NCBI GenBank assembly: GCA_016719295.1
Contig: JADKAF010000001.1
Coordinates: forward strand, 4,704,267 to 4,768,266
DNA: 64,000 nucleotides
Source: Planctomycetota bacterium
Lineage (GTDB): Bacteria > Planctomycetota > UBA1135 > JADKAF01
Reading direction: 5' to 3'
Shown in pieces: positions 35,300 through 60,858 of this stretch. Position 1 is the stretch's first letter. Each line of letters begins with the position of its first letter. A program made the position numbers and the translations under genes. The notes below the pieces were generated by a model. It was not told where the DNA came from. It saw only the letters and a list, made by a program, of their open reading frames with translations, and searched no databases.

Positions 35300-35503
35300 G
35301 GAGGGCGGTGCCTGTGTGGGCCGGCGAAGGGGGCTTCGCGCTCCATGGTACGCGCGAGCACGTCGAGCGACTCGCCGCACGAGGCCCTCGCGAAAACGCG
35401 CCCGGGGCTATCGAGCTACTTGGGGCGTTCGTATTCTGGGCCTGCCCGGTAGGCGTCGTCGCCGATATGTGCGAACCGGCGGAGGCCGGGCTCGCGTGGG
35501 AGA

Positions 35504-40482: not shown

Positions 40483-40680
40483 CGCGAGCAGGGCAGGGAG
40501 AAGAGCACCGGGGGCAGGAACGCTCTCAACGCCCCATCTCCCGATAAGCGCCGCCAGAACTCCGAGTTTCGTGCCGCGGCGCTTCGGCGCACCCTCTTCC
40601 GCGGGTGGACCCGTGCGTGCTCGCGGAGGAGCGGCATCGCCCGCTACGCTGGACGCAACAGCCCCCTCGAAGGGAAGACC

Positions 40681-44519: not shown

Positions 44520-44593
44520 GGCGACCGAATTGGATCAAAAGCGGTCGTCCGGGGCGACCGCATTTCCGCGTCGCGTCCTTCGCTCCAGGACGG

Positions 44594-47484
44594 CTAGGAC
44601 CGCCCCGGCTGCCTCCGCTGCAGCAACGCACGGCGCCGATCGAGCCCTTCCTGCCGCGCCTGCACGCGCTCGGCCGAGACGGTCGTCGCGCTCGAGGCCG
44701 GATCGCCGGAGTTCCGCAGGAAGTCGGCGAGCGAGCGCACCGTGGGGAAGCGGAAGAGGTCGGTGATCGAGGCGTGCACGGAGAGCTGGCGCTTGAGACG
44801 CCCCTGCACCTGCACGGTGAGGAGCGAGTGGCCGCCGAGATCGAAGAAGTTGTCGTCGCGGCCGACGCTGGGCAGCGTGAGCACCTCGGCCCAGATGGCG
44901 GCGATGGCGCGCTCGAGGTCGTCCTCGAGCTTCGTGTTCGACGGGGCCTTGGGTGCGGCGAGCTGCTCGGGATCGGGCAGCGCCTTGCGGTCGATCTTCT
45001 GGTTCGGCGTGTGCGGGAGCTCGGGGAGCGCCATCACCCGCGCGGGGATCATGAACTCGGGCAGCGACTCGCGGAGCTCCAAGCGCAGCGCGTCGGGAGC
45101 GAGCACGGCGCCGGGCTTCGGCGAGACGTAGGCGAGGAGGCGCGGCTCGCTGCTTGCGTCCTTGCGGACGACGACGGCGGCTTCGTGCACGCCGGCGCGC
45201 GCGCGCAGGGCGGCTTCGATCTCGCCGAGCTCGATGCGGTAGCCGCGCAGCTTCACCTGCTGGTCGACGCGGCCCAGGAACTCGAAGAGGCCGTCATCGC
45301 GGCGGCGCGCGATGTCGCCGGTGCGGTAGAGGCGCGGGGCACCGAGCTCGGCGGCGAGCGGGTGGTGCACGAAGCGCTCGGCGCTGAGCTCGGCGCGGTG
45401 GAGATATCCGCGCGCGACGCCGGTGCCGCCGATCCAGAGCTCACCGGAGAGCCCGCTCGGCACGGGTTGGCCGTACGCGTCCAGGACGAGGAAGAAGGTG
45501 TTCGCGATCGGTTCCCCGATCGGGATCTGCTCTTCGTCGCCGCGGAGCTCGTAGGTCGAGGACCAGATGGCCGTCTCCGTGGGGCCGTACATATTGATGA
45601 TGCGGCCGCGCATGTGCGCGCGGAGCTCGCGCGCGAGGGCCGGCGGGAACGCTTCGCCGCCGATCATCAGAAGCTCGAGCTTCGCGAGCGCTTCGGCGGA
45701 ACCGGACTGCGCGAGGATCATCGCGGCCATCGACGGCGTGCACTGGAGGTGCGTGATGCCGTGCGCGGCGATGAGCTCGGGGATGCTCTGACCCTGGGCG
45801 GCTTCCGCGCGCTGCGTCACGTGCTCGCGCAGGCGGTTCAAGTGGTCGATGTGCTCGAGGGCCAGCTCGGAGTCGACGCCGAAGTCGATCAAGCACGCGA
45901 TCTCGTCGATGCCTACGGACTCGAGGCGCTCGACCATGCGCTCGCAGGTCTCGAGCGTCCCGAAGAGGCCGCTGGTCTCGAAGTAGCGCTCGAAGGCGTT
46001 CTCGAGGATCGCCTCCAGGTCCTCCGCGGAGAGCTTCTCGAAGTCCCGACTCATCTCTTCCGCTTCGCCCGCGGAGTTCGTCTTGAAGGTGGGGAAGCTC
46101 GCGACGAAGGACTTCACGAGGCCGACGGAGCTACGCAGGTACTCGATCATCGGCCGCCGCACGAGCTCGCGCACGGAGTGATCGCAGTCGCCGACGAAGG
46201 CGTGCAGCATGATCGTGACGCGGCCTTCGCGCGGGCCATGGCCCGCTGCGCTCCACGCGCGGCGATAGGCCTCGACTTTCTCGCGCAGCTCCTCCACGGT
46301 CTGGCCGAGGAGGTGCGTCAGCACGTTCGCGCCGATCTTTCCGGCGGCGATCCAGGTGTCGACGTTGCCGGCGGTGGTGAGCCAGACCGGCAGCTCCTTT
46401 TGCACGGGGCGCGGAAGCGTGCGCACCGCGATCTTGCGACCGTCGGCGAGCGGGCGCTCGATCGACTCGCCGCGCCAGAGCGCGCGCACGGTCTCGATGC
46501 CGTCCATCAGGACTTGCTTGCGATCCGCGTAGTTCTGCGGCGCGAGCACGAAGTCATTGGGCTGCCAGCCCGAGGCGAACGCGATGCCGACGCGCCCTTG
46601 CGAGAGGTTGTCGACGAGCGACCATTCCTCGGCGACGCGCAGAGGGTCGTTGATGGGGAGAACGACGCTGCCGGCGCGGATCTGGATGCGCTTCGTGATC
46701 GAGGCGAGGGCCGCGCTCGCGACCGCGGGGTTGGGATAGAGGCCGCCGAAGGCGTGGAAGTGGCGCTCGGGCGACCAGACGGCTTCGAAGCCGAAGGCGT
46801 CGGCGCGGCGGGCACCTTCCATCAGCAGGCGGTACTTGTCGTGCGCCTTCTCGGCCTCGTCGCTGGCGAAGTAGAAGAGGCTGAAGTCGAGCTTCCTCCG
46901 CAACCCGCCCTTGCCGGAGGCGCGGCGATCATCGCCGGTGTAGAGCACGAGCTTCAGGCCGCGCGTCAGCGTCCAACAGATCTCGAGCACCGAGATGTCG
47001 AACGAGAGGCTCGTCACCGCCAGCCAGGCACCGCCCTCGCGCCGGCCGAGGCGCTGGTCCATGCCGGTGAAGAAGTTGAGCACGTTGCCGTGCTCGACCA
47101 TGACGCCCTTCGGCTTCCCGGTGGAGCCGGAGGTGTAGATGACGTAGGCCAAGTCCTTCGATGCGAGATGGCGCATCGGGGCGCTCGCGGGCTGCACCGC
47201 GATGCGCGAGGCGTCCTCGTCGAGGCGCACGACGGCGCCGCGGAACGCGGGGAAGAGCGAGCTCGTGTCTCCGAGCGTGACGAGCACGGGGACCTGCGCA
47301 TCCTCGACTTGGTACGAGAGGCGCTCGGACGGATACTCGGGGTCGAGCGGCAGATAGGCGCCGCCCGCCTTTTGGATCGCGAGCAGCGCTACGACCATCG
47401 GGACGCCGCGCGGCACGCAGATGCCGACGATCGTGCCTGTGGTGACACCGAGCACGCGGAGATGCCACGCGAGCTGATTCGCGC
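44594..47484 (-). CDS. NRPS fragment 2: adenylation domain with inserted luciferase-like monooxygenase, then PCP (frameshifted continuation of 47485..48989)
   Basis: Track ORF 44594..47590, meaningful from ~47484. A-domain cores LAYVIYTSGSTGKPKG, SLSFDIS, NMYGPTE, GELWIGGTGVARGY, YRTGD, KLRGYRIELGEIE, PNQKIDRKAL. An LLM-type domain (~45823..46891; FSLFYFASDE.., SPERHF, ..GIDEIACLIDFG) lies between the FDxS core and the pre-A5 region. PCP motif FFDLGGHSLL. No TE or R domain. Confidence 0.85.
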
Positions 47485-48989
47485 GCCTCGAGCTCGCGAT
47501 AGCGCAGCGACTGCGCGCCGCAGACGAGCGCCACGGCGTCCGGGGTCTTTCGCGCCTGCTCTTCGAACTGATCCGGGATCGTGCGCTCATGGGGCCACTC
47601 GCACGCGGTGCTGCGTCCGGCGGCGAGCAGCTCGGCGCGTTCGCGATCGCTCATCAAGCGCTGCTCGGCGAGCGGCGCGCGCGGTGCATCGGCGAACGAG
47701 GCGAGCAAGGTCTCCAAGTGCTCCATCGCGCGCGCCATCGCCGCATCGGCGAAGCGCGTGCGATCCCAGGAGAGCTGCAGCACGAGGCCGTCCTCGCCGT
47801 AGGCGTAGAGCGTCAGCGGGAACACCGTGCGCTCGTGCAGTGCGAAGTGGCGCTCGCGCTCGGCGCTCGAGAGCTCGCGGAGCTCGCCGTCCAGGATGCG
47901 ATCGTCATAGATCAGGATCGCTTCGAACAAGTGGCGCGCGCCGCTCGGCAAGCACCAGCGCTGGATGTCGACGAGCGGGGTCGTCTCGAAGGGCGCCAAC
48001 GCGCGGTTCTGCGCGCGGACTTCGCGCAGCCAATCGACGAGGGGCAGCTCGGGCTGCAAGCGCACGCGCAGCGGCAGCGTGTTGATGAAGGTGCCGACGA
48101 TCGACTCGGCGCCCTCGACGGAGGAGCGGCGGCAGGCGCGGATGCAGCCCAGCACGACCTCGCTCTCGCCGGCGTAGCGCGCGAGCAGCGTCGCGAACGC
48201 GGCTTGCACCACGTTGTTCAGCGAGGCGCCGCTCTGCTCGGCGAGGGCGCGGAGCTGCGCGGTGAGCGCCGGTGTCAGCGCACGACGGAGCAGCCCGCGA
48301 TCCTCACCCGGAGCGAAGCTCGTGGTCGTGGGACGCGGGGAGAGCGCTGGCAGCGTGCTGCCGCCGCTTCCCGCGAGCGCGCCGCGCCAGAACGCTTCCT
48401 CGGCCGTGGCGTTGCGCCGCTCGGCGAGGTGCGCGACGTGCGCGCGGAAGCCGCGCTGTGGCGGCAGCGCCGGCGCGGAAGCGCCCGCGCGCGCCGCGTC
48501 GTAGCTCGTGAACACTTCGCGCAACACTTGCGCGAAGCTGCGACCGTCGAGCAGCAGGTGATGGAAGGTCCACACCAAGCGCTGCTCGCGCGCACCGAAG
48601 CGGAAGAGCGAAAAGCGCAGCAGCGGCGCCTTCGCGAGCGCCATTCCGCCCTGGCGGTCCTCGCGGAGCCAACGCGCGAAGCGCTCCTCGCGCTCGGCCG
48701 CGGGCATGGTGCTCCAATCGTGATTCGTCCACGCGAGCTCGACCTGCGGCAGCACGCGCGCCACGGGTTCCGGCAGTCCCTCCCACGCGAACTCGGTGCG
48801 CAGCGCTTCGTGGTGCGCGATCACGCGACGCCACGCTGTCTGAAGTGTCGCGACATCCAGCTCCTCGCTCAGGTTCGCGACGATCTGCTCGAGATCGACG
48901 CCGGGATGCCCACCCGCGATGTGGTGGAAGAGCATGCCCTGCTGAATGGAGGTGAGCGGATGCTCGAGAGGGAGGTCGCGTTCGTTCAT
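47485..48989 (-). CDS. NRPS fragment 1: condensation domain plus start of the A domain
   Basis: ATG 48989 forms an ATGA overlap with the PPTase stop. C-domain motifs LTSIQQGMLFH and HHLLLDGRS. The track ORF 46929..49466 leaves the sensible frame right after ..SLRYRELEAR (~47485), where the 44594..47590 frame takes over (..ANQLAWHLRVLGV). Confidence 0.8.
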
Positions 48990-49777
48990 CGGGAGCACCA
49001 TGCGCCGGACTCGGCTCTGGAGCGAAGGTCTGCAGCGGCGTAGGGATAGCACTCCACGGCGGCGGTGCCGCGCGGAGCCGCGAGGGCGGCCGCGAACCCA
49101 GGTACGAGCTCGAGGTCGAGGACCCTCCACCCTACTTCGGAGGTAGAAGCCCCACGGCCGTGAAGGACCGCGCGCTCGTCGGAAGAACTTTCCGGATCGA
49201 TCTGGATGTCGAGGAGCGGTGCGCGGAGCCCTTCGCCGGTGGCCTTGATGTAGGCCTCCTTGCGGGTCCACGCCGCGAAGAACGCGCGGTCGCATCGCGT
49301 GGAGCTCGCGCGCTCGATCGCTGCGCGCTCTCCCGCGGTGAAGACGCGCTCCGCGACATCGTCGGCGTCGGGCAGTCGGTGGATCTCTTCGACATCGACG
49401 CCGAGCTCGCCGATCGCGCTGAGCGCGACGACGGCGACGCCGGCGCTGTGCGAGAGGTTGAACCATAGCGCGCCGGCGAGTTCACCCGCGAGCGTCGGCT
49501 TGCCGTCGGAGCGCACGCCGATCGGCACGCGCTCCGGCGCGAGCGAGAGCGCCCGCGCGAGCACGCGGCGCAGCGCGGCATGCGCGGCGATGTAGCGACG
49601 CTGCAGGAGCGGGATCTGGAATCGAGCGGCGCGCACGCGTTCTCCCTCATCGAGGAGGTCTCGCTCGCTCGGCGAGCTCGCCGCATCTCCATCGAGCTCG
49701 ATGGTGAAGACCGCGGCTGCCTCGGGTCGGAGCTGCCAGTCCGCCGGGAGTGCCGCGGAGTACTGCACCGCGATCAT
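48986..49777 (-). CDS. Sfp-type 4'-phosphopantetheinyl transferase
   Basis: Trimmed to ATG 49777, which forms an ATGA overlap with the upstream stop. Motifs FNLSHS, GVDVEEI, WTRKEAYIKATG. Confidence 0.85.
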   Translation of the reverse strand: MIAVQYSAALPADWQLRPEAAAVFTIELDGDAASSPSERDLLDEGERVRAARFQIPLLQRRYIAAHAALRRVLARALSLAPERVPIGVRSDGKPTLAGELAGALWFNLSHSAGVAVVALSAIGELGVDVEEIHRLPDADDVAERVFTAGERAAIERASSTRCDRAFFAAWTRKEAYIKATGEGLRAPLLDIQIDPESSSDERAVLHGRGASTSEVGWRVLDLELVPGFAAALAAPRGTAAVECYPYAAADLRSRAESGAWCSR

Positions 49778-50565
49778 CGCGCCACCGCCGTCGCGCGTCG
49801 GCGATTCCAGAGCGAAGCGGCGAGCAAACGCACGGCGAACGGGATGCCGTGCACGAGGTAGCGCTTGAACAGGCGTCGCGGCTCCTGGACCAAGCGATGC
49901 AGCCACTCCAGGCCGAGGCGTCGCACGAGCGGAGACGCGCGCTTCACGTCGCCGGTGACGAAGCTGAAGCTGATGCCGACGCCGAGCCACCACGCGCGCG
50001 GCAGGAGCTGGCGCAGCTCGGCGATCAAGCGCTCCTGCTTCGGAGAGCCGAGCGCCACGTAGACGATATCGGGCTGCAGGTCGACGAGCAGCTCGCGCAG
50101 CGCGCGCAGTGCCTGCTCGTCCTTCTCGAAGCCCGGTGCGGGGCACGCCGTGCCGCGCACGACGAGCCCGCGGTTGCGCTCCGCGAGGATGCGTCCCGCC
50201 GCTTCGGCCGTCCCCGGATCTCCACCGAGCAGGAAGATGCTGCGACCCGCGCGAGCGGCGGCGCTCGTCAGGCTCGAGATGAGATCGCTGCCGGCGACGC
50301 GCTCGGGCAGCGGGGTGCCCTGCAAGCGCGAAGCCCAGACCAGCGGCATGCCGTCGGCGACGAAGAGCTCAGCGCCGGCGCAGAGCTCGCGGTAGCTCTT
50401 CTCGTTTACGAGGCGGCGCAGGTGATCGAGGTTCGGTGTCACGATCCAACCGCCGCGGCCGGCGGCGAGCTCTTGAAGCACGTGCTCGACGCATTGCCCT
50501 TCGCGCACGGCATCGATCTCGACACCGAGCAGCTCGATCCGGTGCCACGCGCGAGCTCCGCTCAC
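49774..50565 (-). CDS. WecB/TagA/CpsF family (GT26) glycosyltransferase
   Basis: GTG 50565 forms a GTGA overlap with the GT2 stop. Family motifs WIVTPNLDHLR, ADGMPLVWASR, FLLGGDPG, VALGSPKQE. Confidence 0.85.
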   Translation of the reverse strand: MSGARAWHRIELLGVEIDAVREGQCVEHVLQELAAGRGGWIVTPNLDHLRRLVNEKSYRELCAGAELFVADGMPLVWASRLQGTPLPERVAGSDLISSLTSAAARAGRSIFLLGGDPGTAEAAGRILAERNRGLVVRGTACPAPGFEKDEQALRALRELLVDLQPDIVYVALGSPKQERLIAELRQLLPRAWWLGVGISFSFVTGDVKRASPLVRRLGLEWLHRLVQEPRRLFKRYLVHGIPFAVRLLAASLWNRRRATAVAR

Positions 50566-51506
50566 GAGGTGCTCTCCTGCGGCGGCCGCCAGACGCTCGC
50601 CTGCCGCTCGTCGAGCGCGCGCGTCGCGCGGCGCTTGCCTTGCACGAGGCACGCGAGCTGATAGCGGCGCAGGAACCTGCGGAACGCGGGATCCGCGTAA
50701 CGCTTCTTCCGCGCGAAGAAGCTCTTCAGCCAGCCCCACTCCATCGCCAATCCGCCGAGCACGTACGGCGGGTGCAGCATGCGGAAGAGCGCGCTGGCGC
50801 TCATGTACAGGAAGCCCGTGCCCATGAAGTGCTGGCCGGCGCCGTGGCGCACGCGTCCGGTGTAGATGCTCTTCTGCGAGGAGCCCATCGGGCGCAGGTG
50901 CTCGAAGGCGAGCTCCTCGTCGCCATAGCTCTCCGCGCGCCAGCCGAGCTGTCGCGCGCGATGGCAGTCGATGCCGTCCCACATCACCTCGCGCACGAAG
51001 CCGCCGATCTGCTCGAAGGCCGCTCTTCGGTAGAGCTTGGTCATGCCGACCGACATCTCGTCGCCGCAGCCCTCCGAGATTCGCTCGCCGTTCGGCCCGC
51101 GGAACCAAGGCTTGCCGCTGCAGGTCGCGAGCCGCGGCTCGGCCTCCATGCGAGCGAGCAGGATCTCGAAGTAGCGCGGCGGAATGTCGAGATCGAGATC
51201 GAACTTCGCGAAGTAGGGATAGCGCTCGGGCTCGGCGACCTCCCAACCGGCGTAGAAAGCGTCGATGACACCGGGCCCGACACTGCGATGGCCGCGGTTC
51301 TCGCGGCGCAGCACGCGGATCCACGAGTGCTTGGCGGCGTACTCGGCGAGGAGCTGCGGCGTCTCATCGGAGCTGCCGTCGTCGACGATCAGCCAGCACG
51401 CCGGCCGATGCGTCTGCGCGACCACGCTGTCCAAGGTGCGCCGCGCGTACGCGGCCTCGTCGCGGCACGGCGTGATGAGCAGATACGGCGGAAGCGGTGC
51501 GCTCAT
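50562..51506 (-). CDS. family 2 glycosyltransferase
   Basis: ATG 51506 forms an ATGA overlap with the asnB-like stop. GT2 N-terminus LLITPCRDEA..LDSVVAQT..WLIVDDGSSDET and a DxD-like FDLDLD. Hydrophobic C-terminal segments. Confidence 0.85.
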   Translation of the reverse strand: MSAPLPPYLLITPCRDEAAYARRTLDSVVAQTHRPACWLIVDDGSSDETPQLLAEYAAKHSWIRVLRRENRGHRSVGPGVIDAFYAGWEVAEPERYPYFAKFDLDLDIPPRYFEILLARMEAEPRLATCSGKPWFRGPNGERISEGCGDEMSVGMTKLYRRAAFEQIGGFVREVMWDGIDCHRARQLGWRAESYGDEELAFEHLRPMGSSQKSIYTGRVRHGAGQHFMGTGFLYMSASALFRMLHPPYVLGGLAMEWGWLKSFFARKKRYADPAFRRFLRRYQLACLVQGKRRATRALDERQASVWRPPQESTS

Positions 51507-53440
51507 GCGGCCCCTCCGATCTCGACCTTCTGCGCGCGGCACCACCAGAGCAGCACGTAGAGCGACCAGATGCGCGACCAGTAGAGACCCGGGGCTCCCG
51601 CCGAGAACGCGCGCCAGAGCCGCGCGACGGCGGCGGGCTCGAGGCCGGCCGCCTCGCAAGCCGCGGCGTTCGTGAGCAGGGCGCCGACCTCTCCGGCGAG
51701 CGACGCGCGGCACCAGCGCTCGATGGGCAGCACGAAGCCGGACTTCTGGCGTTCGAACAACGCCTTGTCGAGGTTGTCGAGGGCCAGGTCGCGCAGCAGC
51801 TGTTTGCGACCGAGCGGCTCGAAGCGGACGGTCGGCGGCAGCGCGCTCGCGTTCTCGACGATGCGCGAGTCGAGCAGCGGAACGCGCACCTCGAGCGAAA
51901 CGGCCATGCTCGCCGTGTCGCCGTCGCGCAGCAGGCGCTGGCCGATGAAGCTCTCGAGCTCGAGACGCGCGATCGCCGCGCGCGCGTCGTGTCCCTGGAT
52001 CCCGCGCTCGAGGCGGTCCAAGCGCTCGAGCTCGAGGCCGTAGGCCGTGCCTTCGAAGAGCTGAGCGGGTGCGAGCTCGGCGAGGAAGCGCTGCGTGTAG
52101 AGCCCATAGGCGACTTGGTAGAGCGCGACGAGCGAGCCGCGCGTCGCGAGCAGATCGCCGAGCTTCCCCCAGCGCGTCTGCGGGGGAACCTCGCCCGCAG
52201 CGCCCGTCTTCATGCGCGCGGCGAGCCCTGCCGCGGCGCGCAGCAGCGACACCGGGACGGGGCGCAAGCGTCGCGCCCACTTTCGCGCCTTCGGCAGCTC
52301 CGCGAAGCTGCGATAGCCGCCGAAGAGCTCGTCGCCGCCGGTGCCTGCGAGCGCCACGGTGATCCCCGCTTCGCGCACCGCGCGGCTCACGAAGTAGGTG
52401 TTCAGCGCGTCGAACGACGGCTGGTCGAGCGAGCGCAGCGCGCCGTCGAGACCGCTCGTGAAGCTCTGCTCGGTGAGCCGGATCTCGCGATGCGTCGTGC
52501 CGAGGGCGGAGGCGACCGCGCGCGCGATCTTCGATTCGTCGTACGCGGCTTCGTCGAAGCCGATCGTGAAGGTGTGGACCGCGCCGGCTCCCGCGCGCGC
52601 GGCGAGGCTCGCCACCGCGCTCGAGTCGATGCCGCCCGAGAGGAAGACGCCGAGCGGCACATCGCTCACGAGCTGCTCGCGCACCGATTGCTCGAGAGCC
52701 GCGCGCAGCGTCGCCAACGAGCTGCGCGGCGCTTCGGGCTCCGGCAGATGCCACCAACGCTCGGGCTTGCACTGCGGCGCGTCGATGGAGATCGAAGCGC
52801 GCGAGCCGGCGGGCAGGAGCTCGATCCCGCGCACGAGCGAGCGATCGCTGCAGACGAAGCCATGCCAGAGATAGCTCGCGAGCGCCTTGGGCTCGAGCTT
52901 CCGATCGACCATGCCCGTCGCGAGGAGAGAACGGAGCTCGGAGGCGAAGAGCAGCACCGCGGAGCCGTTCCGGCGGACGAGGGTCCAGTAGAGTGGCTTC
53001 TCGCCCAGCGGATCGCGCGCGAGCAACACCGCTCTCCGCCGCGGGTCGTAGAGCGCGAAGGCGTACATGCCGCGGAGCTTGCGCACGCAGTCGTCGCCCC
53101 ACTGCGCATAGGCCGCGAGCAAGACCTCGGTATCCGAGCGCGTGCGAAAGCTGCGTCCGGCCGCGCGCAGCTCTTCGCGCAGCGCGGCGAAGTTGTAGAT
53201 CTCCCCGTTGAAGACGATCACGCAGCCCGAGGCGTCGTCGCGCATGGGCTGATTCGCCTCGGCTGAGAGGTCGAGGATCGCCAGGCGGCGATGCGCGAAG
53301 AGGACGCGCTCCCGCTCACCCGGGCCGGGCCAGAGGCCTTCCGCATCGGGGCCGCGGTGTGCCTGCGCCGCGTGCGCGCGCTGCAGCGCAGCTCGCAGCT
53401 CCGCGTCGATCCCGCCTACAGCGCCAGCGATGCCGCACAT
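51503..53440 (-). CDS. asnB: asparagine synthase (glutamine-hydrolysing)-like amidotransferase
   Basis: Trimmed to ATG 53440 (MCGIAG.. with the N-terminal nucleophile Cys) with AGGAGG 7 nt upstream. GATase-2 region plus the PP-loop SGGIDSS. Confidence 0.9.
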   Translation of the reverse strand: MCGIAGAVGGIDAELRAALQRAHAAQAHRGPDAEGLWPGPGERERVLFAHRRLAILDLSAEANQPMRDDASGCVIVFNGEIYNFAALREELRAAGRSFRTRSDTEVLLAAYAQWGDDCVRKLRGMYAFALYDPRRRAVLLARDPLGEKPLYWTLVRRNGSAVLLFASELRSLLATGMVDRKLEPKALASYLWHGFVCSDRSLVRGIELLPAGSRASISIDAPQCKPERWWHLPEPEAPRSSLATLRAALEQSVREQLVSDVPLGVFLSGGIDSSAVASLAARAGAGAVHTFTIGFDEAAYDESKIARAVASALGTTHREIRLTEQSFTSGLDGALRSLDQPSFDALNTYFVSRAVREAGITVALAGTGGDELFGGYRSFAELPKARKWARRLRPVPVSLLRAAAGLAARMKTGAAGEVPPQTRWGKLGDLLATRGSLVALYQVAYGLYTQRFLAELAPAQLFEGTAYGLELERLDRLERGIQGHDARAAIARLELESFIGQRLLRDGDTASMAVSLEVRVPLLDSRIVENASALPPTVRFEPLGRKQLLRDLALDNLDKALFERQKSGFVLPIERWCRASLAGEVGALLTNAAACEAAGLEPAAVARLWRAFSAGAPGLYWSRIWSLYVLLWWCRAQKVEIGGAA

Positions 53441-53670
53441 AGCGGACCTCCTGCGGAGCCCGAGCGCTGGGCATGGGCGCGACACGGTCTCGCGCGCCGG
53501 GCGATCGGCGTGCTCCTGGCGCTGAGGCTGGGGAGAGGCGGGTGCAACTTCGGTGACGGCCGCGCGGGGCTCTGCCTCGCTCGCGACGGGCGCTCATGGG
53601 TGTATTCGGACCGGCTCGGGGCAGGTCTGAAGAGACCCTCAGTCGCAGATTCTCTCTGGAAACGCAACGA

Positions 53671-53698
53671 GAGGTCGGGGACCGAAGTCCTCGACCTC
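53671..53698 (-). terminator. hairpin downstream of the mini-protein gene (terminator/attenuator candidate)
   Basis: gaggtcggggac cgaa gtcctcgacctc forms a 12-bp stem (one mismatch or G:U) with a 4-nt loop, ~100 nt after stop 53800. It is followed on the minus strand by a T-containing stretch (tcgttgcgtttcc). Confidence 0.4.
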
Positions 53699-53799
53699 AC
53701 GTGGGATGCCCGGTCTCGACGGGGAAGCTCGAGCGCAATGCGGCGAGCGCGTCACCGGCCCGGCAAGCCAGTCGGCCCGGATCGGCCCGGGCGATCAGC

Positions 53800-54036
53800 T
53801 CAGGCCGTCGCGCGGGCGCTGCGGACGCGGCTCGTCAGGATGAGCACGCCGCCGACGAGCAGCACGATGAGACCCGTCGCGAGGGTCGGGTCGATTTCGG
53901 GCGCGTTCATGACCTCGCCCGTGGTCGCCGTCGTTCCGACGACCGTGGTACCGACGGCCTGCTGGAAGGCGAGCGCCGGGTGCGCGAACACGAGAGAGAC
54001 GAAAGCCAAGGTGCGGAGAGTCGCAAAGCGGATCAT
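53800..54036 (-). CDS. 78-aa secreted mini-protein with PEP-CTERM/VPEID-CTERM-like C-terminal sorting signal
   Basis: ATG 54036 with GGAG 10 nt upstream. Signal peptide MIRFATLRTLAFVSLVFAHPALA, then a ~22-aa Thr-rich core (FQQAVGTTVVGTTATTGEVMN), then APEIDP, a TM helix (TLATGLIVLLVGGVLILT) and a basic tail (SRVRSAR). Confidence 0.6.
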   Translation of the reverse strand: MIRFATLRTLAFVSLVFAHPALAFQQAVGTTVVGTTATTGEVMNAPEIDPTLATGLIVLLVGGVLILTSRVRSARATA

Positions 54037-54201
54037 GGCGGTCAAACTCCACGCGCGTGAGCACATCCGCGGATCGTGCCGCCGATGGCCTCGCAGCGCG
54101 CAGTGCGAGGGAGAGTTGTGTTTCGGGGAGAGATAGTCCCTCCAAACCTAGCCCGGCATCCCTCGAACTGTCCAGTCCCCGGATCAAGGAAGGGCCTTTT
54201 T

Positions 54202-54867
54202 TCAGCGCGGAGGCCGGAGCCAGGTCGGCAGGCCGCGCGTGCAGCGGTTCAGCAAAGTGCCCAGCAGGGGGATGGCGGCGCTCTCGAGCGAGCGCAGGAC
54301 GGGGCGCACATCCCCACGGCGGGTTCGACGCGCGTTGAGGACCAGGATCACCCCGTCCAACGAAGCCAGGATAGGCACCGTCTGCGGATGCGCGGGGGCT
54401 GGAGGGGCATCGACGATGAGATGGCTCCCGTCGCTGGTCAGGCGTTCCCAGATCTTCACGAGCTCGGCCGCGCGCGGCGGCACGCTGCTCGGCTTCGGAA
54501 CCCCGACGGGCAGGACGCGGAGGCCGGGAACATCGGTCGTGCGGACCGCGGCCTCGAAGGAGGACTCGCCGCTGCGGATCTCCTCGAGGCCGGGACCGGC
54601 AGGCAAGCCGACGAGCTGCGCCAGGCCGGGGCGGTGAGCATTGGCTTCGACGAGGACGACGCTGCGTCCGCCGTGCAGGGCGAGGCTGATCGCGGCGCAG
54701 GTGGCCGCGGTCGTCGTGCCGTCGCCATGCTCGCAGGCGGTGAAGGCGAGGCGGAGCGGGGCGTCGCTCGGCGCGCTGGCGAGCAAGCCGGTCCAGAGGG
54801 TGGCGAAGGTCGGGCCGAAGGGATCGAGGAGGTCGAGGAGGCCCGAACGCGAAGTGGGAGAGCTCAT
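54202..54867 (-). CDS. BY-kinase-like (CpsD/EpsG-type) P-loop protein with degenerate Walker A
   Basis: ATG 54867 forms an ATGA overlap with the wzz-like stop. Colinear with BY-kinase catalytic domains (VVLVEANAHRP ~ Walker A', HLIVDAPP ~ Walker B). Walker A reads ACEHGDGTTT with no Lys, and there is no C-terminal Tyr cluster. Confidence 0.7.
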   Translation of the reverse strand: MSSPTSRSGLLDLLDPFGPTFATLWTGLLASAPSDAPLRLAFTACEHGDGTTTAATCAAISLALHGGRSVVLVEANAHRPGLAQLVGLPAGPGLEEIRSGESSFEAAVRTTDVPGLRVLPVGVPKPSSVPPRAAELVKIWERLTSDGSHLIVDAPPAPAHPQTVPILASLDGVILVLNARRTRRGDVRPVLRSLESAAIPLLGTLLNRCTRGLPTWLRPPR

Positions 54868-56528
54868 GAGCGCGCCGCTCCCACCGCGGCTTGCCGGCGC
54901 GGTTGGGCGAGGTCGCGCGCCGACACCTCGGGCACGAGGCCGAGGACCGGAGTACCGAGGAGGCGCTTCACGTCGCCCGGCGAACGGAAGCGCCGTCCGA
55001 GGCGAGATCGCAGCAGCGCGAAGCCAACGCTGAGCGCACCGCCGACCAAGCCGCCGATCATCACCATGCGACCGCGGCGCGGGCCGCTCTTCTCGGCGAG
55101 CGAGCTGGCTCGCTGGATCTCGCGCAGGTTGATGAGGTTCATGCGATCGAGGTCGTCGAGGACGGCGATCTCCGCGCGCGCCGCCGTGACCTGATCCAGC
55201 TTCGAGCGCGCCTTGCTCGCCTCGTTCTGGAGGTAATTGAGGGTCGGGCTGCAGCGCTCCACCTCGGCCAGGTCGTCCTTCACGCTGGAGCGCCGGCCCT
55301 TGCGCTTGTCGGCTTCGCTGCGCAGAGAGACGAGCTCTATCTTGGCTGCATCCCGATCGACGACGAGGCGTTCGTAACGCGGGTTGGGCTGCTCGATCTG
55401 GCTCGGAGCGACTTCCTCGCGCTGGGGCGTCGACTCGAGCTCTTTGTCCGTTTCCTCGAGCTGCCTCTGGAGCGCGCGACGCTGGAGCTCGATCTTCTCC
55501 CGGCTCAAGTCGCTGCCGAACTCCAGCGCGACGAGCTGACCCTTCAGCTCGAGGCGTCGATCGGTGAGCGCGGTCCAGAGCGGATTGGGCTGGGCAGGAT
55601 TCGGCGCGAGCACCTTGCGCGTCGGCAGCTCTTCTTTCAGCTCGGCCTCCAAGGTCTGGACCGTCGCTTCGAGCGCCGCGATGCGTTCCTCGTCGGCGCG
55701 GATTCGCCCTTCGAGCTCCACCCTCTCGCGCTGGAGCTCGGCCCGCTCGCTGTCCGCGTCGAAGATGTTGCACTGCAGACGGTAGTCGGCGGCGGCCTTC
55801 TCTGCCGCAGCGAAGCTCGTGTTCGCCTCGGTGATCTCCTGATCGAGGAACTCCAGCCACGAGTTCGAGGAGAAGACGGATTGGTGCATGGCGCGAGCTT
55901 CCGCCATGAAGGTGTTCACCAGCTCGGCCGAGAGTCGGGGCGAGCTCGTCGTACAGATCACGGTGAGCACGCTCGAGTTCATCTCGGCACGCACGAGGAG
56001 AGCGCGCTGCAGGATCTTCGTCGCCACCGAGACGGCTGCTTCGGAATCGAGGCTCGCGGCGTTGGCTGCATCGCCTGAGAAGCTGCGGAACCAGAAGTCC
56101 TGGAACGAATGCAGCGCCTCGGTGACGAAGCCGTGGTCGATGCCCTGGCTCTGCGGATCGTAGGGAGCGAGCAGGCGGTCGGCGCCGATCTTGCGGACGA
56201 CGTTCTCGAAGAGATGCGGGTTCGCCAGCAGATGAAGCTCGTTCATCACGGCTTCGCGTGCGCTGGAGGCTCCGCCGCCGTCCGAGCCCATGATGCGCGA
56301 CTCTGCGGAGCCGCCTTCGCGCTCACCAGCGCGCACCAGCAGCTTGCCGGTCGCTTCGTAGGTGTTCGGCTCGATCGCCGCTCGGAAGGTCGCGATGGCG
56401 AGCCCGAGGCCGGTGAGCAAGCAGATCCAATAGCGCGCGTGCCAGAGCGGCGCGACGAAGGCCTCGACCAGATCGACGGGCGGGCGACGCTGCTGGTCGC
56501 TCGCCTCCTGCTCGCTAGAGAATGGCAT
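54864..56528 (-). CDS. polysaccharide chain-length determinant (Wzz/GumC/EpsF-like PCP)
   Basis: N-terminal TM (YWICLLTGLGLAIATF), long coiled-coil periplasmic region, second TM (MVMIGGLVGGALSVGFALL). This matches typical PCP-2 architecture without a fused kinase. Confidence 0.8.
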   Translation of the reverse strand: MPFSSEQEASDQQRRPPVDLVEAFVAPLWHARYWICLLTGLGLAIATFRAAIEPNTYEATGKLLVRAGEREGGSAESRIMGSDGGGASSAREAVMNELHLLANPHLFENVVRKIGADRLLAPYDPQSQGIDHGFVTEALHSFQDFWFRSFSGDAANAASLDSEAAVSVATKILQRALLVRAEMNSSVLTVICTTSSPRLSAELVNTFMAEARAMHQSVFSSNSWLEFLDQEITEANTSFAAAEKAAADYRLQCNIFDADSERAELQRERVELEGRIRADEERIAALEATVQTLEAELKEELPTRKVLAPNPAQPNPLWTALTDRRLELKGQLVALEFGSDLSREKIELQRRALQRQLEETDKELESTPQREEVAPSQIEQPNPRYERLVVDRDAAKIELVSLRSEADKRKGRRSSVKDDLAEVERCSPTLNYLQNEASKARSKLDQVTAARAEIAVLDDLDRMNLINLREIQRASSLAEKSGPRRGRMVMIGGLVGGALSVGFALLRSRLGRRFRSPGDVKRLLGTPVLGLVPEVSARDLAQPRRQAAVGAARS

Positions 56529-56531
56529 GGG

Positions 56532-57260
56532 CTAGTAGACCGGTGGCGCCGCGACGCCGGGGAACGGCAGCATGCGGCGAATGTATTGATCGACCCAGAT
56601 GTCGACGTCGTCGATCGGCGTGTTCGGGATGAAGATCACGTCGTGCGGCTGGAGCAAGAGCGCGGCTCCTTCTTCCCAGCGCTCGACCGAAGCGTCGATG
56701 CGCCACGACCGTTGGCGCTTCTCGGCCTGCGACCACCGGACGAGGAGGGCGTACTCCAGCATCGCGGTCTCTTTGCGCGGACCACCTGCCGCGGCGAGCG
56801 CTTCGACCATGGACATGCGCCCCTTGATCGGAACCTCTCCTGGCTCGATCACATCGCCCATCACATACACGCTGCGGATGCCCTGGAGCCCGAAGGTGAT
56901 GTTCACGTCGGAAGCAGGGCTGTTGGGGTACTGCTTCGCGATGAGCGCGCGGATCGGGGCTTCCGCCTCGGCCGCCGTGAGCCCGCCGATTTGGACCTCC
57001 CCGAGCGAGCCCAGCGTGGTCTTTCCGTCCGGGCGCACATCCGCCGTGATCGAACGCTCGGGAGTATCGCTCGTGGCGAGCCAGAGGATGGAGACGGTGT
57101 CTCCTGGCACCAGCAGCGACGGGCCGGGCTCGAGGGTAGCGTTGGCCTCGAGGGCGACCTCGAACATCGGGCGGCCATACGAGGTGCAGCCGGCCTCGAG
57201 CAGCGAGGCGGCGAGGAGGCTCAGGGCGATCAGGAGCCCACGGAGGGGGGTTGGTCTCAC
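56532..57260 (-). CDS. polysaccharide export protein (Wza/EpsE-like OPX lipoprotein)
   Basis: GTG 57260. Lipobox LLEAG|C. Poly_export motif region (PGDTVSI..DGKTTLGSLGEVQIGGLTAAEAE) and an SLBB-like domain (VYVMGDVIEPGEVPI). Stop lies 3 nt before the wzz-like start. Confidence 0.85.
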   Translation of the reverse strand: MRPTPLRGLLIALSLLAASLLEAGCTSYGRPMFEVALEANATLEPGPSLLVPGDTVSILWLATSDTPERSITADVRPDGKTTLGSLGEVQIGGLTAAEAEAPIRALIAKQYPNSPASDVNITFGLQGIRSVYVMGDVIEPGEVPIKGRMSMVEALAAAGGPRKETAMLEYALLVRWSQAEKRQRSWRIDASVERWEEGAALLLQPHDVIFIPNTPIDDVDIWVDQYIRRMLPFPGVAAPPVY

Positions 57261-58029: not shown

Positions 58030-59388
58030 ATGTACTTCCAGCGTCTGTGGCGGGGTCTCGTCCGACTCCTGCCGCTGACTCGCAAGACTCTCGTCCCCGA
58101 GATCTTGCAGCTCGACCAGTTCCGCCGCCTGCTCCAGCGGGAGCGGAACCGCGCGGACCGCGTCCGTTCGCAGCTCTCGCTGGTCGTTCTCGACCTCGGC
58201 GCGCCCGAGGTCCGCTCCGTCCATCTGGCCGACATCCTGATGTCGATCCAGGAGCGCATCCGCGAGACCGACGCCGCGGGCTGGTTCGATCGACGCAGCA
58301 TCGGCGTCCTCCTCCCCGAGACCGGCGCGGCCGGAGCCATGGTCCTCGCGAAGGACCTGAACCGCCGCCTCTTCGCCGTCTCGGCAACGGCAGCCTGGCG
58401 CATCTACACCTACCCCGAGGACACCATGCCGCCCGAGCGGCCCTCCTCGAATTCGCGCGACTCCAGCGAGACCCGTCGAGGTTCGGGCCTCGGCCTGCCC
58501 TTGCCGAGCGGAAGCCCCTCCGGCGTCTCCTCGCCGGCTCCGAGCGGCGCGCCCATCAGCTCCGGAGCGGCTTCTGCCTCGACCTCTTCTGCGTCCGGCT
58601 CGGCGTCGGGTTCGGGCTCGGGATCGAGCACCTCGACCGCGACGCGCCTCCCGCGATCCACTTCCCGAGGAGCGGAGGTCGCCCCGCGACCTGCTTCGCG
58701 CAGAGCGGAGGCCACGGAGCGCCCGGAGGTGCGGAACGCCGAGCCGCAGCAGATGCAGACCGCGCCGCTGCGCTCGCTGCTCGTGATCCCGCGTTCGCCC
58801 TGGACCCGTCTCTTCGACATCACCGTGGCGTCGCTGGTGCTGCTGCCCGTTTCGCCGATCATCCTGCTCGCGGCGATCGCCGTGCGCCTCAGCTCGCCCG
58901 GGCCGGCGTTCTTCCGGCAGGAGCGCATGGGGCGCTGGGGGCGCACGTTCACGATCTACAAGCTGCGCTCGATGTACGAGGACGCCGACAAGCGCAAGCA
59001 AGAGGTTCTGGAGCTGAACGAGCAGACCGGCCCGGTCTTCAAATGCGCGAAGGATCCGCGCATCACGCCGCTCGGTCGCTTGCTGCGCCGCACCAGCATC
59101 GACGAGCTCCCGCAGCTCTGGAACGTGCTGAAGGGCGACATGTCCATCGTCGGGCCGCGGCCGCCGCTCCCGTCGGAGGTGGAGGAATACCAGCCCTGGC
59201 AGCTCCGCCGCCTCGAGATGCAGTCGGGACTCACCTGCATCTGGCAGGTCAGCGGCCGCAGCCAGATCAAGTTCGATGACTGGGTCCGCCTCGATATCCG
59301 CTACGGGCGCATGAAGAGCCTCTGGTTCGATCTGCGCTTGCTCGCGCGCACGCTGCCCGCGGTACTCACCGGGCGCGGCGCGACGTAG
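58030..59388 (+). CDS. priming polyprenyl-phosphate sugar phosphotransferase (bacterial sugar transferase family) with N-terminal degenerate GGDEF-like domain
   Basis: C-terminal PGT domain (FDITVASLVLLPVSPIILLAAIAV, FFRQERMG, TIYKLRSM, DELPQLWNVLKGDMSIVGPRP). The N-terminal ~110 aa are colinear with GGDEF domains. A Ser/Gly/Ala/Pro low-complexity linker joins them. Confidence 0.9.
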   Translation: MYFQRLWRGLVRLLPLTRKTLVPEILQLDQFRRLLQRERNRADRVRSQLSLVVLDLGAPEVRSVHLADILMSIQERIRETDAAGWFDRRSIGVLLPETGAAGAMVLAKDLNRRLFAVSATAAWRIYTYPEDTMPPERPSSNSRDSSETRRGSGLGLPLPSGSPSGVSSPAPSGAPISSGAASASTSSASGSASGSGSGSSTSTATRLPRSTSRGAEVAPRPASRRAEATERPEVRNAEPQQMQTAPLRSLLVIPRSPWTRLFDITVASLVLLPVSPIILLAAIAVRLSSPGPAFFRQERMGRWGRTFTIYKLRSMYEDADKRKQEVLELNEQTGPVFKCAKDPRITPLGRLLRRTSIDELPQLWNVLKGDMSIVGPRPPLPSEVEEYQPWQLRRLEMQSGLTCIWQVSGRSQIKFDDWVRLDIRYGRMKSLWFDLRLLARTLPAVLTGRGAT

Positions 59389-59493: not shown

Positions 59494-60858
59494 ATGAATC
59501 CGCGGCGCCAGCCGAAACTCCGAGCCATGTCCCGCGAACCGAGCGCCGAGTCCCCGAGCGAGCTCCGCCCGCTCCTGATCGCCGAAGCGGCGAACCCCGA
59601 GTGGGTGAGCGTGCCGCTCGTCGGCTGGAGCCACGCGCACGCGCTGCTGAAGAAGACGCGCGGCCATCTCGTCACGCAGATCCGCAACCGCGACGCGATC
59701 CTGCGCGCCGGTCTCGTCGAGGGCCGCGACTTCACCGCGATCGACTCGGAGCGCAGCGCGCGCCTCGCCGATCGCGTGGCGCGGCTCCTCCGCGGCAAGT
59801 CGGGCGTCGCCTGGACGATGGTGACAGCGCTGCAATCGCTGGCCTACCCGCACTTCGAACGCCTCGTCTGGAAACAGTTCGGCGCGCGGCTCCGCGCAGG
59901 GGAGTTCGATCTCGTCCATCGCATCACGCCGCTGAGCCCGACGACCCCGAGCTCGCTCGCCAAGCGCTGCGCGCGTATCCGCGTGCCCTTCGTCCTCGGC
60001 CCGTTGAACGGCGGCCTGCCCTGGCCGCGCGCGTTCGACCGCGAGCGCCGCCGCGAGCGCGAGTGGCTGAGCTACATCCGCGGCGCGTACAAGCTGATGC
60101 CGGGCTATCGCGCGACGCGCGCGCACGCCGCCGCGATCCTGGTCGCCTCCCGCGCGACGGCCGAGCAGATGCCGAAGCGCCAGCGCGGCAAGTGCTATTA
60201 CCTGCCCGAGAACGGCATCGATCCCGCGCGCTTCGCGCGGCGCCGCACGCACACGGCGAAGCTGCCGCTGCGCCTGATCTTCATCGGCCGCCTCGTGCCG
60301 TACAAAGGCGCCGACATGCTGCTCGAAGCGGCACTCCCGCTGCTGCGCGCCGGGGCGCTCCTGCTCGAGATCGTCGGCGACGGTCCGCAGATGTCCGAGC
60401 TGCGCGCCACCGTCGAGCAGGAAGGGCTCGCGGAGCGCGTGGCGCTCGCCGGTTGGGTCGAGCACGCGCGCGTGCAGGATCGACTGGTAGAAGCCGACCT
60501 GATGGTTTTGCCCAGCATCCGCGAGTTCGGCGGCGGGGTCGTGCTCGAGGCGATGGCCGTGGGCGTTCCACCGGCGGTGGTCGCGTACGGCGGACCCGGC
60601 GAGCTCGTGAGCGATAACCTCGGTTTCCGCATCGAGCTCGGAACACGCGCGGAGATCGTCGCGCGCCTGCGCGCGCTCTTGGATCGCCTCGTCGCGGATC
60701 CCGCGGCGATCGATCGACGCGCGGAGCCCGCGTGGCGCTGCGCGCACGAGCGCTTCGCCTGGAGCTCCAAGGCCGATCAGACGCTCGCGTTCTACGAGTG
60801 GGTGCTCGGGCGGCGCGCGGTCTCGCCGCTGCCGGCGTGGACGGAGATCCCCGGCTGA
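59494..60858 (+). CDS. GT-B fold glycosyltransferase (GT4-like)
   Basis: C-terminal Glycos_transf_1 motifs (LIFIGRLVPYKGADMLLEA, GWVEH, ADLMVLPSIREFGGGVVLEAMAVGVP). Confidence 0.85.
   Translation: MNPRRQPKLRAMSREPSAESPSELRPLLIAEAANPEWVSVPLVGWSHAHALLKKTRGHLVTQIRNRDAILRAGLVEGRDFTAIDSERSARLADRVARLLRGKSGVAWTMVTALQSLAYPHFERLVWKQFGARLRAGEFDLVHRITPLSPTTPSSLAKRCARIRVPFVLGPLNGGLPWPRAFDRERRREREWLSYIRGAYKLMPGYRATRAHAAAILVASRATAEQMPKRQRGKCYYLPENGIDPARFARRRTHTAKLPLRLIFIGRLVPYKGADMLLEAALPLLRAGALLLEIVGDGPQMSELRATVEQEGLAERVALAGWVEHARVQDRLVEADLMVLPSIREFGGGVVLEAMAVGVPPAVVAYGGPGELVSDNLGFRIELGTRAEIVARLRALLDRLVADPAAIDRRAEPAWRCAHERFAWSSKADQTLAFYEWVLGRRAVSPLPAWTEIPG

Follow-up and report, generated by a model that had tools for sequence, protein, structure and literature searches.

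What could be made by an operon in which glycosyltransferase genes run, by overlapping stop and start codons, into genes for a 4'-phosphopantetheinyl transferase (PPTase) and a nonribosomal peptide synthetase (NRPS), next to genes for polysaccharide export? The question is raised by a 64-kb window of DNA (the whole stretch that was analysed; G+C content ~70%) from a Planctomycetes metagenome-assembled genome (MAG), for which a sequence-only reading had proposed a glycan-plus-carrier-protein pathway. By combining a listing of open reading frames (ORFs), Pfam and NCBIfam profile scans of those ORFs, and comparison with related loci, we arrive at a tentative answer, held with a little less than even confidence: the window may hold a composite surface-glycoconjugate locus, whose enzymes would assemble a small acyl unit (N-capped, derived from glycine, and extended by C2) on carrier proteins and place it in a polyprenol-linked surface glycan. 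A pathway of the kind first proposed is a reasonable reading given that glycan genes recur beside relatives of the NRPS across phyla. The features on which the argument draws are the following.

60892 to 64000, minus strand: 3' part of a type I, one-module polyketide synthase (PKS) with ketoreductase (KR), dehydratase (DH), acyl carrier protein (ACP), and thioesterase (TE) domains (Pfam KR, PS-DH, PP-binding, and Thioesterase); the ketosynthase-acyltransferase (KS-AT) part lies past the window end.
59494 to 60858, plus strand: GT4 glycosyltransferase (Pfam Glycos_transf_1; best NCBIfam match EPS_EpsH, 524 bits against a cutoff of 800).
58030 to 59388, plus strand: polyprenyl-phosphate glycosylphosphotransferase (PGT) of the Bac_transf type (Pfam Bac_transf, 212 bits; TIGR03025, 282 against a cutoff of 296).
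56532 to 57260, minus strand: short OPX/Wza-like export protein of 242 aa (Poly_export PF02563, 37.6 against 28; SLBB_2 PF22461, 36.1 against 27).
54864 to 56528, minus strand: Wzz/GumC-like polysaccharide co-polymerase (Pfam Wzz, 20.6, under the cutoff of 25.5; transmembrane (TM)-like segments at residues 34-53 and 487-507).
54202 to 54867, minus strand: degenerate P-loop protein resembling bacterial tyrosine (BY) kinases (TIGR01007, 54 against a cutoff of 108), overlapping the stop codon of the Wzz-like gene by 4 nt.
53800 to 54036, minus strand: secreted mini-protein of 78 aa, PEP-CTERM-like in translation.
53671 to 53698, minus strand: GC-rich hairpin (11 of 12 pairs, TTCG loop) with a T-rich tract, read from the sequence and also present in the minimum-free-energy fold.
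51503 to 53440, minus strand: AsnB-type glutamine-dependent amidotransferase (TIGR01536, 435, over the cutoff of 267; N-terminus MCGI).
50562 to 51506, minus strand: soluble GT2 glycosyltransferase (Pfam Glycos_transf_2), in which no TM segment was found.
49774 to 50565, minus strand: GT26 (WecG/TagA/CpsF) glycosyltransferase (PF03808, 182 bits against 27; TIGR00696, 135 against 69).
48986 to 49777, minus strand: Sfp-type PPTase of 263 aa (PF01648, 73 bits, over cutoff; PF22624, weak; best NCBIfam match HetI, 127 bits, under cutoff).
44594 to 48989, minus strand: frameshifted NRPS module with a condensation (C) domain, a predicted glycine-activating adenylation (A) domain split by a luciferase-like monooxygenase (LLM, or MOx), and a peptidyl carrier protein (PCP) (Condensation, AMP-binding in two pieces, Bac_luciferase/TIGR04020, and PP-binding).
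47480 to 47487, minus strand: frameshift site in a (GC)n run, where intact orthologues read R-R-A-N-Q.
44541 to 44561, minus strand: terminator-like hairpin with a T-tract, 33 nt past the NRPS stop codon.

The nine minus-strand genes from wza to the NRPS had been given these coordinates and families by the sequence-only reading, and both are borne out by the ORF listing, Pfam, and NCBIfam, as is the presence of the divergent PGT and GT4 genes. Its five 4-nt stop/start overlaps are likewise exact by sequence, comprising ATGA at 54864-54867, 51503-51506, 49774-49777, and 48986-48989, and GTGA at 50562-50565. The coupled string that it described is real from AsnB through GT2, GT26, and the PPTase to the NRPS, but it is not unbroken from wza: the minus-strand genes fall into three units, namely wza-wzz-kinase-like (a 3-nt gap at the first junction and a 4-nt overlap at the second), the mini-protein gene (with a 165-nt gap before it and a 359-nt gap after it), and the overlap-coupled asnB-GT2-GT26-PPTase-NRPS. 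The hairpin at 53698..53671 lies in the 359-nt gap between the mini-protein gene and asnB and is possibly a terminator or attenuator; a consensus terminator scanner made no call on it, and the spacer folds no better than shuffled sequence (z = -0.5), so that no riboswitch-like element was found there. The same scanner gave zero terminator-like sites on the minus strand within the asnB-NRPS string. By its position, the hairpin at 44541..44561 is suggestive of an operon ending there, and terminator-like matches across the region are no more frequent than expected by chance. A sigma-70 promoter scan returned no match, nor did Rfam at gathering thresholds anywhere in the window. The PKS had been described as convergent; its strand is that of the operon (minus), and the GT4 gene is the only one towards which it converges.

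Evidence that the assembly-line and glycosyltransferase genes belong together comes from loci retrieved with the A(LLM)-PCP part of the window NRPS as query, followed by fetching of their genomic contexts. Orthologous NRPSs occur at 59-73% identity in six further Planctomycetes loci (L002, L003, L004, L005, L087, and L090), and all six keep asnB, GT2, and GT26 immediately upstream (AsnB 55-70%, GT2 67-77%, and GT26 63-74% identity). The PPTase stands between GT26 and the NRPS in four of the six (L002, L003, L004, and L087; 38-45% identity) and is missing from L005 and L090; an unrelated gene intervenes between PPTase and NRPS in L003 and L087, and the 4-nt GT26/PPTase overlap recurs in L003, L004, and L087. 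Directly beside the operon, and divergent from it, is a full-length PKS (2128-2218 aa; KS-AT-KR-DH-ACP-TE) in every one of the five loci with a visible flank (L002-L005 and L087). The PKS had been assigned to the system together with the PGT and GT4 genes, and the comparison upholds that assignment for the PKS alone, since PGT and GT4, like the Wza, Wzz, kinase-like, and mini-protein genes, occur in none of the six distant loci. The export block is found in the exact layout of the window only in the close relative L093 (GCA_016793245), and part of it is also present on L094 and L095, two short contigs with a similar sequence. Co-conservation, which the sequence-only reading had treated as decisive, therefore holds for the core (AsnB-GT2-GT26-NRPS syntenic in six loci, 55-77% identity) and not for the export block.

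Between L093 and the window the core proteins are 93-97% identical (AsnB 93%, PKS 94%), as against 86% for Wza, 75% for Wzz, 84% for the kinase-like protein, 73-80% for the mini-protein, and 83% for the PGT, with the GT4 at 93%. This difference suggests faster evolution or exchange of the export module than of the NRPS/PKS-associated genes. From these comparisons the conserved unit is PKS, AsnB, GT2, GT26, and NRPS, with the PPTase as a frequent member, and the export block is a lineage-specific insertion between the PKS and asnB. In four of the distant loci (L002:3767-5308, L003:2146-3870, L004:2412-3998, and L087:1033-2625) the first gene of the operon encodes a conserved multi-TM protein (513-574 aa) that bears weak similarity to the putative glycosyltransferases LA_3751/LA_3752 and has no homologue in the window; L004 also has an AlgX-like gene (PF16822). 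A metagenome scan with the window PPTase retrieved only generic Sfp-type PPTases (<=47% identity) and no specific link to the system. As a separate observation, the contig of the closest NRPS orthologue carries a fused protein with major facilitator superfamily, acyltransferase, and AMP-binding parts (LplT/Aas-like, 1163 aa; L090:8030-11521, minus strand) whose gene converges on the NRPS; a role in lipid re-acylation is conceivable, and its placement may be coincidence.

What the assembly line would build can be approximated from its domains. The NRPS keeps the motifs HHLLLDG (C), an SGSTGKPKG-type A3, NMYGPTE, and GGHS (PCP), and thereby has C, A, and PCP domains with catalytic motifs as in a C-A-PCP elongation module, although not in a single uninterrupted frame. 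The LLM domain (TIGR04020, 513 bits) follows the A4 region (FDISVLE) and separates the two AMP-binding pieces, and its closest solved relative is PuwE, a lipopeptide assembly-line enzyme. With the LLM insert removed, the best solved homologue of the A domain is that of LgrA module 2 (619 bits; next distinct protein, 451), and LgrA module 2 activates glycine. The specificity code reads DILQMGMIWK in the window and DILQ[MLC]G[ML][IV]WK in all 17 family members aligned, whether they begin with a C domain or a formyltransferase domain, the positions having been placed by motif context with GrsA-PheA numbering. This is the canonical glycine code, and the A domain of the window NRPS is accordingly predicted to be glycine-specific.

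The N-terminus is the part of the protein that varies. The top 120 protein matches all share the A(LLM)-PCP architecture at >=54% identity, and in most of them an N-terminal formyltransferase domain (PF00551/PF02911) replaces the C domain; this exchange at the start, with the rest of the A(Gly,MOx)-PCP protein conserved, is an observation in its own right, the formyltransferase-type loci being L006-L086. At the other end, the NRPS stops after the PCP without a TE, and the TE is carried by the PKS. Both the carrier serine (GGYS) and the TE serine (GYSGG) are present in the window PKS, and for the KS the Cys/His/His residues are kept. The closest matches of the KS-AT region are CurL and a PKS whose structure was solved jointly with a peptide synthetase, the latter being also the second-best distinct match of the window A domain. 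Because the NRPS gene precedes the PKS gene in most loci, most relatives begin with an initiation-type formyltransferase, the TE lies at the PKS end, the KS residues are kept, and the KS-AT resembles that of a PKS partnered with a peptide synthetase, an order in which the NRPS acts before the PKS is favoured.

Two other roles were considered for these enzymes and rejected. An iterative PKS of the PUFA or enediyne type is ruled out by the KR-before-DH order, the KS-AT being closest to modular cis-AT PKSs that follow NRPS modules; and a DPM1/ArnC-type role for the GT2, as a synthase of undecaprenyl-phosphate-linked sugars, is ruled out as C-terminal TM helices are absent and ArnC/GtrB gave no matches. 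With regard to the extender unit, the AT domains of the L005 and L006 PKSs (approximately residue 700) carry the motif AAHS or AGHS, and not HAFH (malonyl) or YASH (methylmalonyl), which leaves its identity uncertain.

The reverse order of action would correspond to the terminal-amide formers MtaG and MelG of myxothiazol and melithiazol biosynthesis, in which a C-A-MOX-A-T layout is used and the MOX domain hydroxylates the glycine alpha-carbon (PMC11411415). On this account a PKS chain and glycine would be condensed at the C domain, the MOx domain would hydroxylate the alpha-carbon, and fragmentation would give a primary amide and glyoxylyl-S-PCP. The two are alike in that a C domain precedes a glycine-specific A domain that is split by a luciferase-like monooxygenase, and the C domain of the window resembles the elongation type, which takes carrier-bound donors. 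MtaG and MelG nevertheless end in a TE (C-A-MOX-A-T-TE) at the close of a multimodular line, whereas the window NRPS has no TE, that function residing on the PKS, and is not the end of such a line. Most of its relatives, moreover, have the initiation-type formyltransferase in place of the C domain, and there the NRPS gene directly precedes the PKS gene; the same immediate succession of NRPS and PKS is seen in the C-type locus of a gammaproteobacterial MAG (L014), and the KS is closest to a PKS that receives its substrate from a peptide synthetase. The lack of a TE and the formyltransferase-bearing relatives upstream of a PKS make a starter role likelier than amide release, and we consider the amide-releasing role improbable, and less likely than a contribution to a surface glycoconjugate.

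Whether the NRPS functions in this particular genome is a separate matter. It had been described as complete at 48989..44594, and it is not: the span of 4396 nt is no multiple of 3 and consists of ORF 48989..46929 and ORF 47590..44594, which overlap. The frameshift that joins them lies in a GCGCGCG run at 47480-47487 and splits the A domain. The sequence there is 'gag gcg cgc g aat cag' where orthologues have E/D-R-R-A-N-Q, so that one base is too many or two are too few. NRPS orthologues are single intact proteins of 1455-1482 aa, and the NCBI record for the window NRPS annotates only a 953-aa piece. A search of JGI metagenomes with a DNA pattern across the frameshift site returned no second copy. 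The window NRPS is either a pseudogene, with the pathway inactive here, or the product of an assembly indel error. If the former, the link between the two gene sets would be non-functional or coincidental in this organism, and the export genes would make an ordinary, NRPS-independent polysaccharide. Besides the split A domain and the fragmentary annotation, such a view draws on the lineage-specific nature of the export block and on a coarse look at the ORF table and Pfam scans, in which no other window gene is obviously split, so that separate evidence for frequent indel errors is lacking. The shift nevertheless sits in a (GC)n run, a typical spot for an assembly or polishing indel; the frames are otherwise open, with a G+C content at third codon positions (GC3) of ~0.92 and intact catalytic motifs; the neighbouring core genes are all intact and overlap-coupled; and the core is strongly conserved in L093 (93-97% identity). 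We therefore regard a dead or coincidental arrangement as unlikely, and as less likely than a composite glycoconjugate locus.

The glycan setting of the NRPS-PKS pair can be followed well beyond the Planctomycetes. In a scan of one genome per species, at least 597 stretches were confirmed as relatives, and neighbourhoods were analysed for the best 80 of these, all of them full-length matches, which span more than 10 phyla (Gemmatimonadota, Burkholderiales, Myxococcota, Phycisphaerae, Chloroflexota, Ignavibacteria, Acidobacteriota, Cyanobacteria, Sphingomonadales, Rhodobacterales, Verrucomicrobiota, Actinomycetota, and others). In ~55 of the 80 loci a homologous PKS can be detected, mostly directly after the NRPS (52 loci under strict clustering). 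The recurrent neighbour clusters, once annotated, proved to belong to glycan-related families and PPTases only: GT2 (13 loci), GT4 (8), AsnB (7), BY-kinase-like P-loop proteins (6), nucleoside diphosphate-sugar epimerase (6), two PPTase clusters (6 and 5), Wzy_C (5), a second GT2 cluster (5), Wzz (5), and PGT (4), and these families are spread over unrelated phyla. Individual cases include Piscinibacter gummiphilus, where EpsI, Wzy_C, and beta-helix genes flank the pair on one side and a pair of GT2 genes on the opposite side, and loci of Gammaproteobacteria, Sandaracinaceae, Arenicellales, and Gemmatimonadota with AsnB homologues near the pair. In a Pfam census of the five nearest genes at 26 diverse loci, GT2 was commonest (9 of 123 proteins), followed by PPTase and alpha/beta hydrolase. 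A tblastn count of glycan genes within 10 kb, covering 50 diverse loci of at least 19 kb and giving lower bounds at BLAST sensitivity with no matched random-locus control, found one or more in 28, two or more in 18, and three or more in 14 of the 50; a glycosyltransferase was present in 23, a PPTase in 15, and an export or assembly gene in 15. The association of the pair with glycan genes is frequent, not universal.

Taken together with the domain content, these neighbourhoods allow a route to be proposed. The PPTase would prime the PCP and ACP, and the A domain would load glycine, whose amine would be capped by the N-terminal C domain (by the formyltransferase in most relatives). The embedded luciferase-like monooxygenase would then oxidise the carrier-bound unit, most likely at the glycine alpha-carbon, and the PKS would add one malonyl unit, followed by KR reduction and DH dehydration, before the TE releases or transfers the small product. 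This product would be incorporated into, or decorate, a polyprenol-linked oligosaccharide made by GT26 and GT2 (here also by PGT and GT4). AsnB may amidate a carboxylate on the sugar or the acyl unit, and its substrate could equally be the TE-released carboxylate; AsnB paralogues in O-antigen loci amidate uronic acids.

The commitment to a lipid-linked glycan is the step at which the principal alternative diverges. The NRPS-PKS pair could instead make a small aglycone that is decorated by the neighbouring glycosyltransferases, giving a glycosylated natural product or glycolipid comparable to those of glycolipopeptide clusters, with the export genes unrelated. Such a product fits the surroundings of the pair, in which a single GT2 gene, a PPTase, or an alpha/beta hydrolase is commonest and not a complete export system, and it fits the detection of an export or assembly gene within 10 kb in only 15 of the 50 loci; glycosylated NRPS/PKS lipopeptides that use alpha-oxidation dependent on flavin mononucleotide do exist (myxoglucamides), and an orphan cluster of roseobacters is described simply as PKS, glycosyltransferase, NRPS, and PPTase. 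Characterised GT26 enzymes (WecG, TagA/TarA, and GumM), on the other hand, act on polyprenyl-diphosphate-linked sugars, which argues for a lipid-linked glycan rather than a soluble aglycone, and GT26 sits in the conserved Planctomycetes core. Wzz, BY-kinase-like, Wzy_C, and PGT genes recur beside the pair in several unrelated phyla, and the LA_3751/LA_3752-like protein opens the operon in L002-L004 and L087, with the AlgX-like gene in L004. We consider a small glycosylated product somewhat unlikely, and the surface-glycan interpretation is preferred on the basis of the overlap-coupled GT2/GT26 operon conserved in Planctomycetes, the acceptors of GT26, the polymer-level genes around the pair in several phyla, and the initiation and export block inserted mid-cluster in the window lineage.

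Several observations weigh against this preference. The NRPS is frameshifted in the genome at hand, and the export block is absent from the six distant loci and is not co-conserved with the core beyond the close relative. Neither an acyltransferase able to transfer the unit to a sugar nor a Wzx flippase or Wzy polymerase turned up in the window, and 22 of the 50 diverse loci have no detectable glycan gene within 10 kb, a count that also speaks for a small glycosylated product. The C domain looks elongation-type, being closest to those of McyB and PvdL, which fits a carrier-bound donor better than free acyl-CoA.

The proteins of the inserted block are themselves of a distinct character. The kinase-like protein is related to BY-kinases in its P-loop, as had been claimed, but it lacks the defining features of one: Walker A reads GDGTTT, with no Lys, and the C-terminus, ending in TRGLPTWLRPPR, is without Tyr. 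The loss of both Walker A and the Tyr cluster is shared by its orthologues in L093:9157-9828 and L095:753-1424, and this conservation of the degenerate state in close relatives points to a protein that is probably a pseudo-kinase or scaffold and not an autokinase. At 242 aa, the OPX protein probably lacks the Wza C-terminal helix domain. OPX proteins of ~240 aa are typical of the exopolysaccharide (EPS) pathway of Myxococcus xanthus, and short OPX proteins are thought to require a separate beta-barrel partner; neither such a partner nor Wzx or Wzy was found among the ORFs of the 64-kb window. The match of the window protein to EpsY of M. xanthus is weak (25 bits), below its XrtA-export and EpsE matches.

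The sorting-signal mini-protein of the sequence-only reading has proved to be a member of a real small family. Its signal peptide is followed by a 20-mer rich in Thr and Gly, then by APEIDP, a TM helix, and a tail rich in Arg, such that the mature protein has only ~20 Thr/Gly/Ser-rich residues. An exhaustive search among 1.84 billion representatives gave 22 homologous clusters of 71-131 aa (P0121-P0143), which share the signal peptide, a short Gly/Ser/Thr-rich stretch, P-E-I-[DN]-P, a TM helix with GG, and an Arg cluster; the P-E-I-x-P, the GG, an L, and an R do not vary among them. By eye the APEI[DN]P-TM-RRR tail looks PEP-CTERM-like, and we take the VPEID-CTERM variant to be the closest motif; of the curated sorting-domain hidden Markov models (HMMs) of NCBIfam (E<=5), the sole match was LPxTATN (E=0.14; 12.5 bits against a cutoff of 32). 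The further proposal that this protein accepts the carrier-bound unit finds no support, as its gene is absent from the other NRPS loci compared: homologues were matched only in the window and on two unrelated short contigs, and one further homologue lies on a 341,561-bp contig, outside the 24.4-kb L002 locus. The mini-protein thus goes with the export block rather than the NRPS-PKS core.

Outside the locus, the window holds housekeeping or typical Planctomycetes content. The genes 3' of the NRPS are unrelated to it and encode an AAA_14/DUF4143 protein, an AlkB-like 2-oxoglutarate oxygenase, and an alpha-L-fucosidase (40429-42534). The last two lie near a Ser/Thr protein kinase fused to an FGE-sulfatase (formylglycine-generating enzyme-like) domain (37716-40019, minus strand), which adjoins a sulfatase gene (35453-36898, plus strand); this is polysaccharide-degradation content typical of Planctomycetes and unrelated to the NRPS-PKS locus.

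If the unit does decorate a glycan or form a component of a glycoconjugate, a function would be given to a large orphan family (at least 597 relatives in species-representative genomes, with no MIBiG match), along with a new chemical class of surface-polysaccharide modification. It is possible, if doubtful as a general statement, that the pairing of a [formyltransferase or C]-A(Gly,MOx)-PCP protein with a KS-AT-KR-DH-ACP-TE protein forms the core of an undescribed and widespread cell-surface glycan modification, supplying a glycine-derived, alpha-oxidised, C2-extended unit, and that the roseobacter cluster would then be an envelope pathway and not an antibiotic one. What is new here is the welding of a full C-A(Gly,MOx)-PCP module and a PKS module to AsnB, GT2, and GT26, the very wide distribution of the family, and its repeated embedding in glycan loci. 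The value of the window itself is lower, owing to the frameshifted NRPS and the uncultured status of its organism, known as a MAG; cultivable carriers (Phaeobacter, Ruegeria, Piscinibacter, Sphingomonas, and Ramlibacter) make the hypothesis testable.

Among known glycan systems, the sequence-only reading had named PEP-CTERM/EpsH-type loci for comparison. The XrtA/PEP-CTERM loci described by Haft and co-workers do resemble the window in having Wza-, Wzz-, and kinase-like proteins, an AsnB paralogue, a PGT, and a small secreted PE...TM...Arg protein. Membership was nevertheless rejected on every point tested: no exosortase appeared when each GC3-supported ORF of the 64-kb window was scanned with Pfam, no PEP-CTERM HMM was matched, and the XrtA equivalog HMMs scored under cutoff (TIGR03027, 60 against 180; TIGR03007, 72 against 279; TIGR03018, 63 against 231; TIGR03108, 416 against 817). 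The M. xanthus Wzx/Wzy EPS pathway is likewise similar in that the best NCBIfam names are EpsA for GT26, EpsH for GT4, and EpsZ for the PGT, with EpsY fitting the OPX protein more weakly than the XrtA export HMMs do; it differs in that all scores are under the equivalog cutoffs and that Wzx, Wzy, and the beta-barrel partner are not in the window. Literature searches joining Planctomycetes or exosortase with PKS, LLM, or AsnB returned no match.

Carrier-protein-dependent decoration is established in D-alanylation by DltABCD, glycine transfer to lipid A by AlmEFG, tetronate addition by RfbKLMNO of Vibrio cholerae O1, and butirosin biosynthesis by BtrI/J/K/O/H, so that the principle is not new. 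As in the route proposed here, these systems rely on an adenylating enzyme that charges a carrier with a small acid or amino acid, and the unit is moved to a sugar, and in butirosin biosynthesis BtrO carries out an LLM-type oxidation of the carrier-bound unit. Those systems, in contrast to the window, use stand-alone small proteins with neither a C domain nor PKS extension, and they have a transferase, of which none was found in the window. The linear gramicidin synthetase LgrA offers the most similar A domain, that of its module 2, and in module 1 an N-terminal formyltransferase as in the sister family of the window NRPS, whereas the LLM insertion, the PKS partner, and the glycan context are all absent from it.

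The closest described counterpart is the roseobacter cluster. A hybrid cluster conserved in roseobacters, comprising a PKS, a glycosyltransferase, an NRPS, and a PPTase with its product unidentified, is noted in PMC5014874, which cites Martens et al. 2007, and in 2023 it was reported as an NRPS-like/T1PKS hybrid with little or no MIBiG similarity, present in 18 of 37 Rhodobacteraceae species (PMC10584327). To that extent the cluster type, which the sequence-only reading had called undescribed, has been on record since 2007. The gene set is that of the window, and the sizes agree with the window family (NRPS ~1500 aa and PKS ~2100 aa). Rhodobacterales loci L067, L074-L076, L079, and L081 match the window A(LLM)-PCP at 48-51% identity and carry the homologous PKS, which in several of them is accompanied by a PPTase or GT2. 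By gene content and sizes, and not by published sequences, the roseobacter orphan cluster appears to belong to the NRPS-PKS family of the window; the match provides a family name and not a function. It has so far been treated as a secondary-metabolite cluster, and the comparative data point towards a glycosyltransferase and polysaccharide-assembly setting. Roseobacter and most other versions start with a formyltransferase, whereas the Planctomycetes version starts with a C domain. The window itself has all four features of the family, namely the A(LLM)-PCP protein, the PKS, the PPTase, and glycosyltransferases, with a C domain rather than a formyltransferase as its N-cap; relative to the roseobacter cluster, the Planctomycetes core adds AsnB and GT26, and the window lineage adds the inserted export block.

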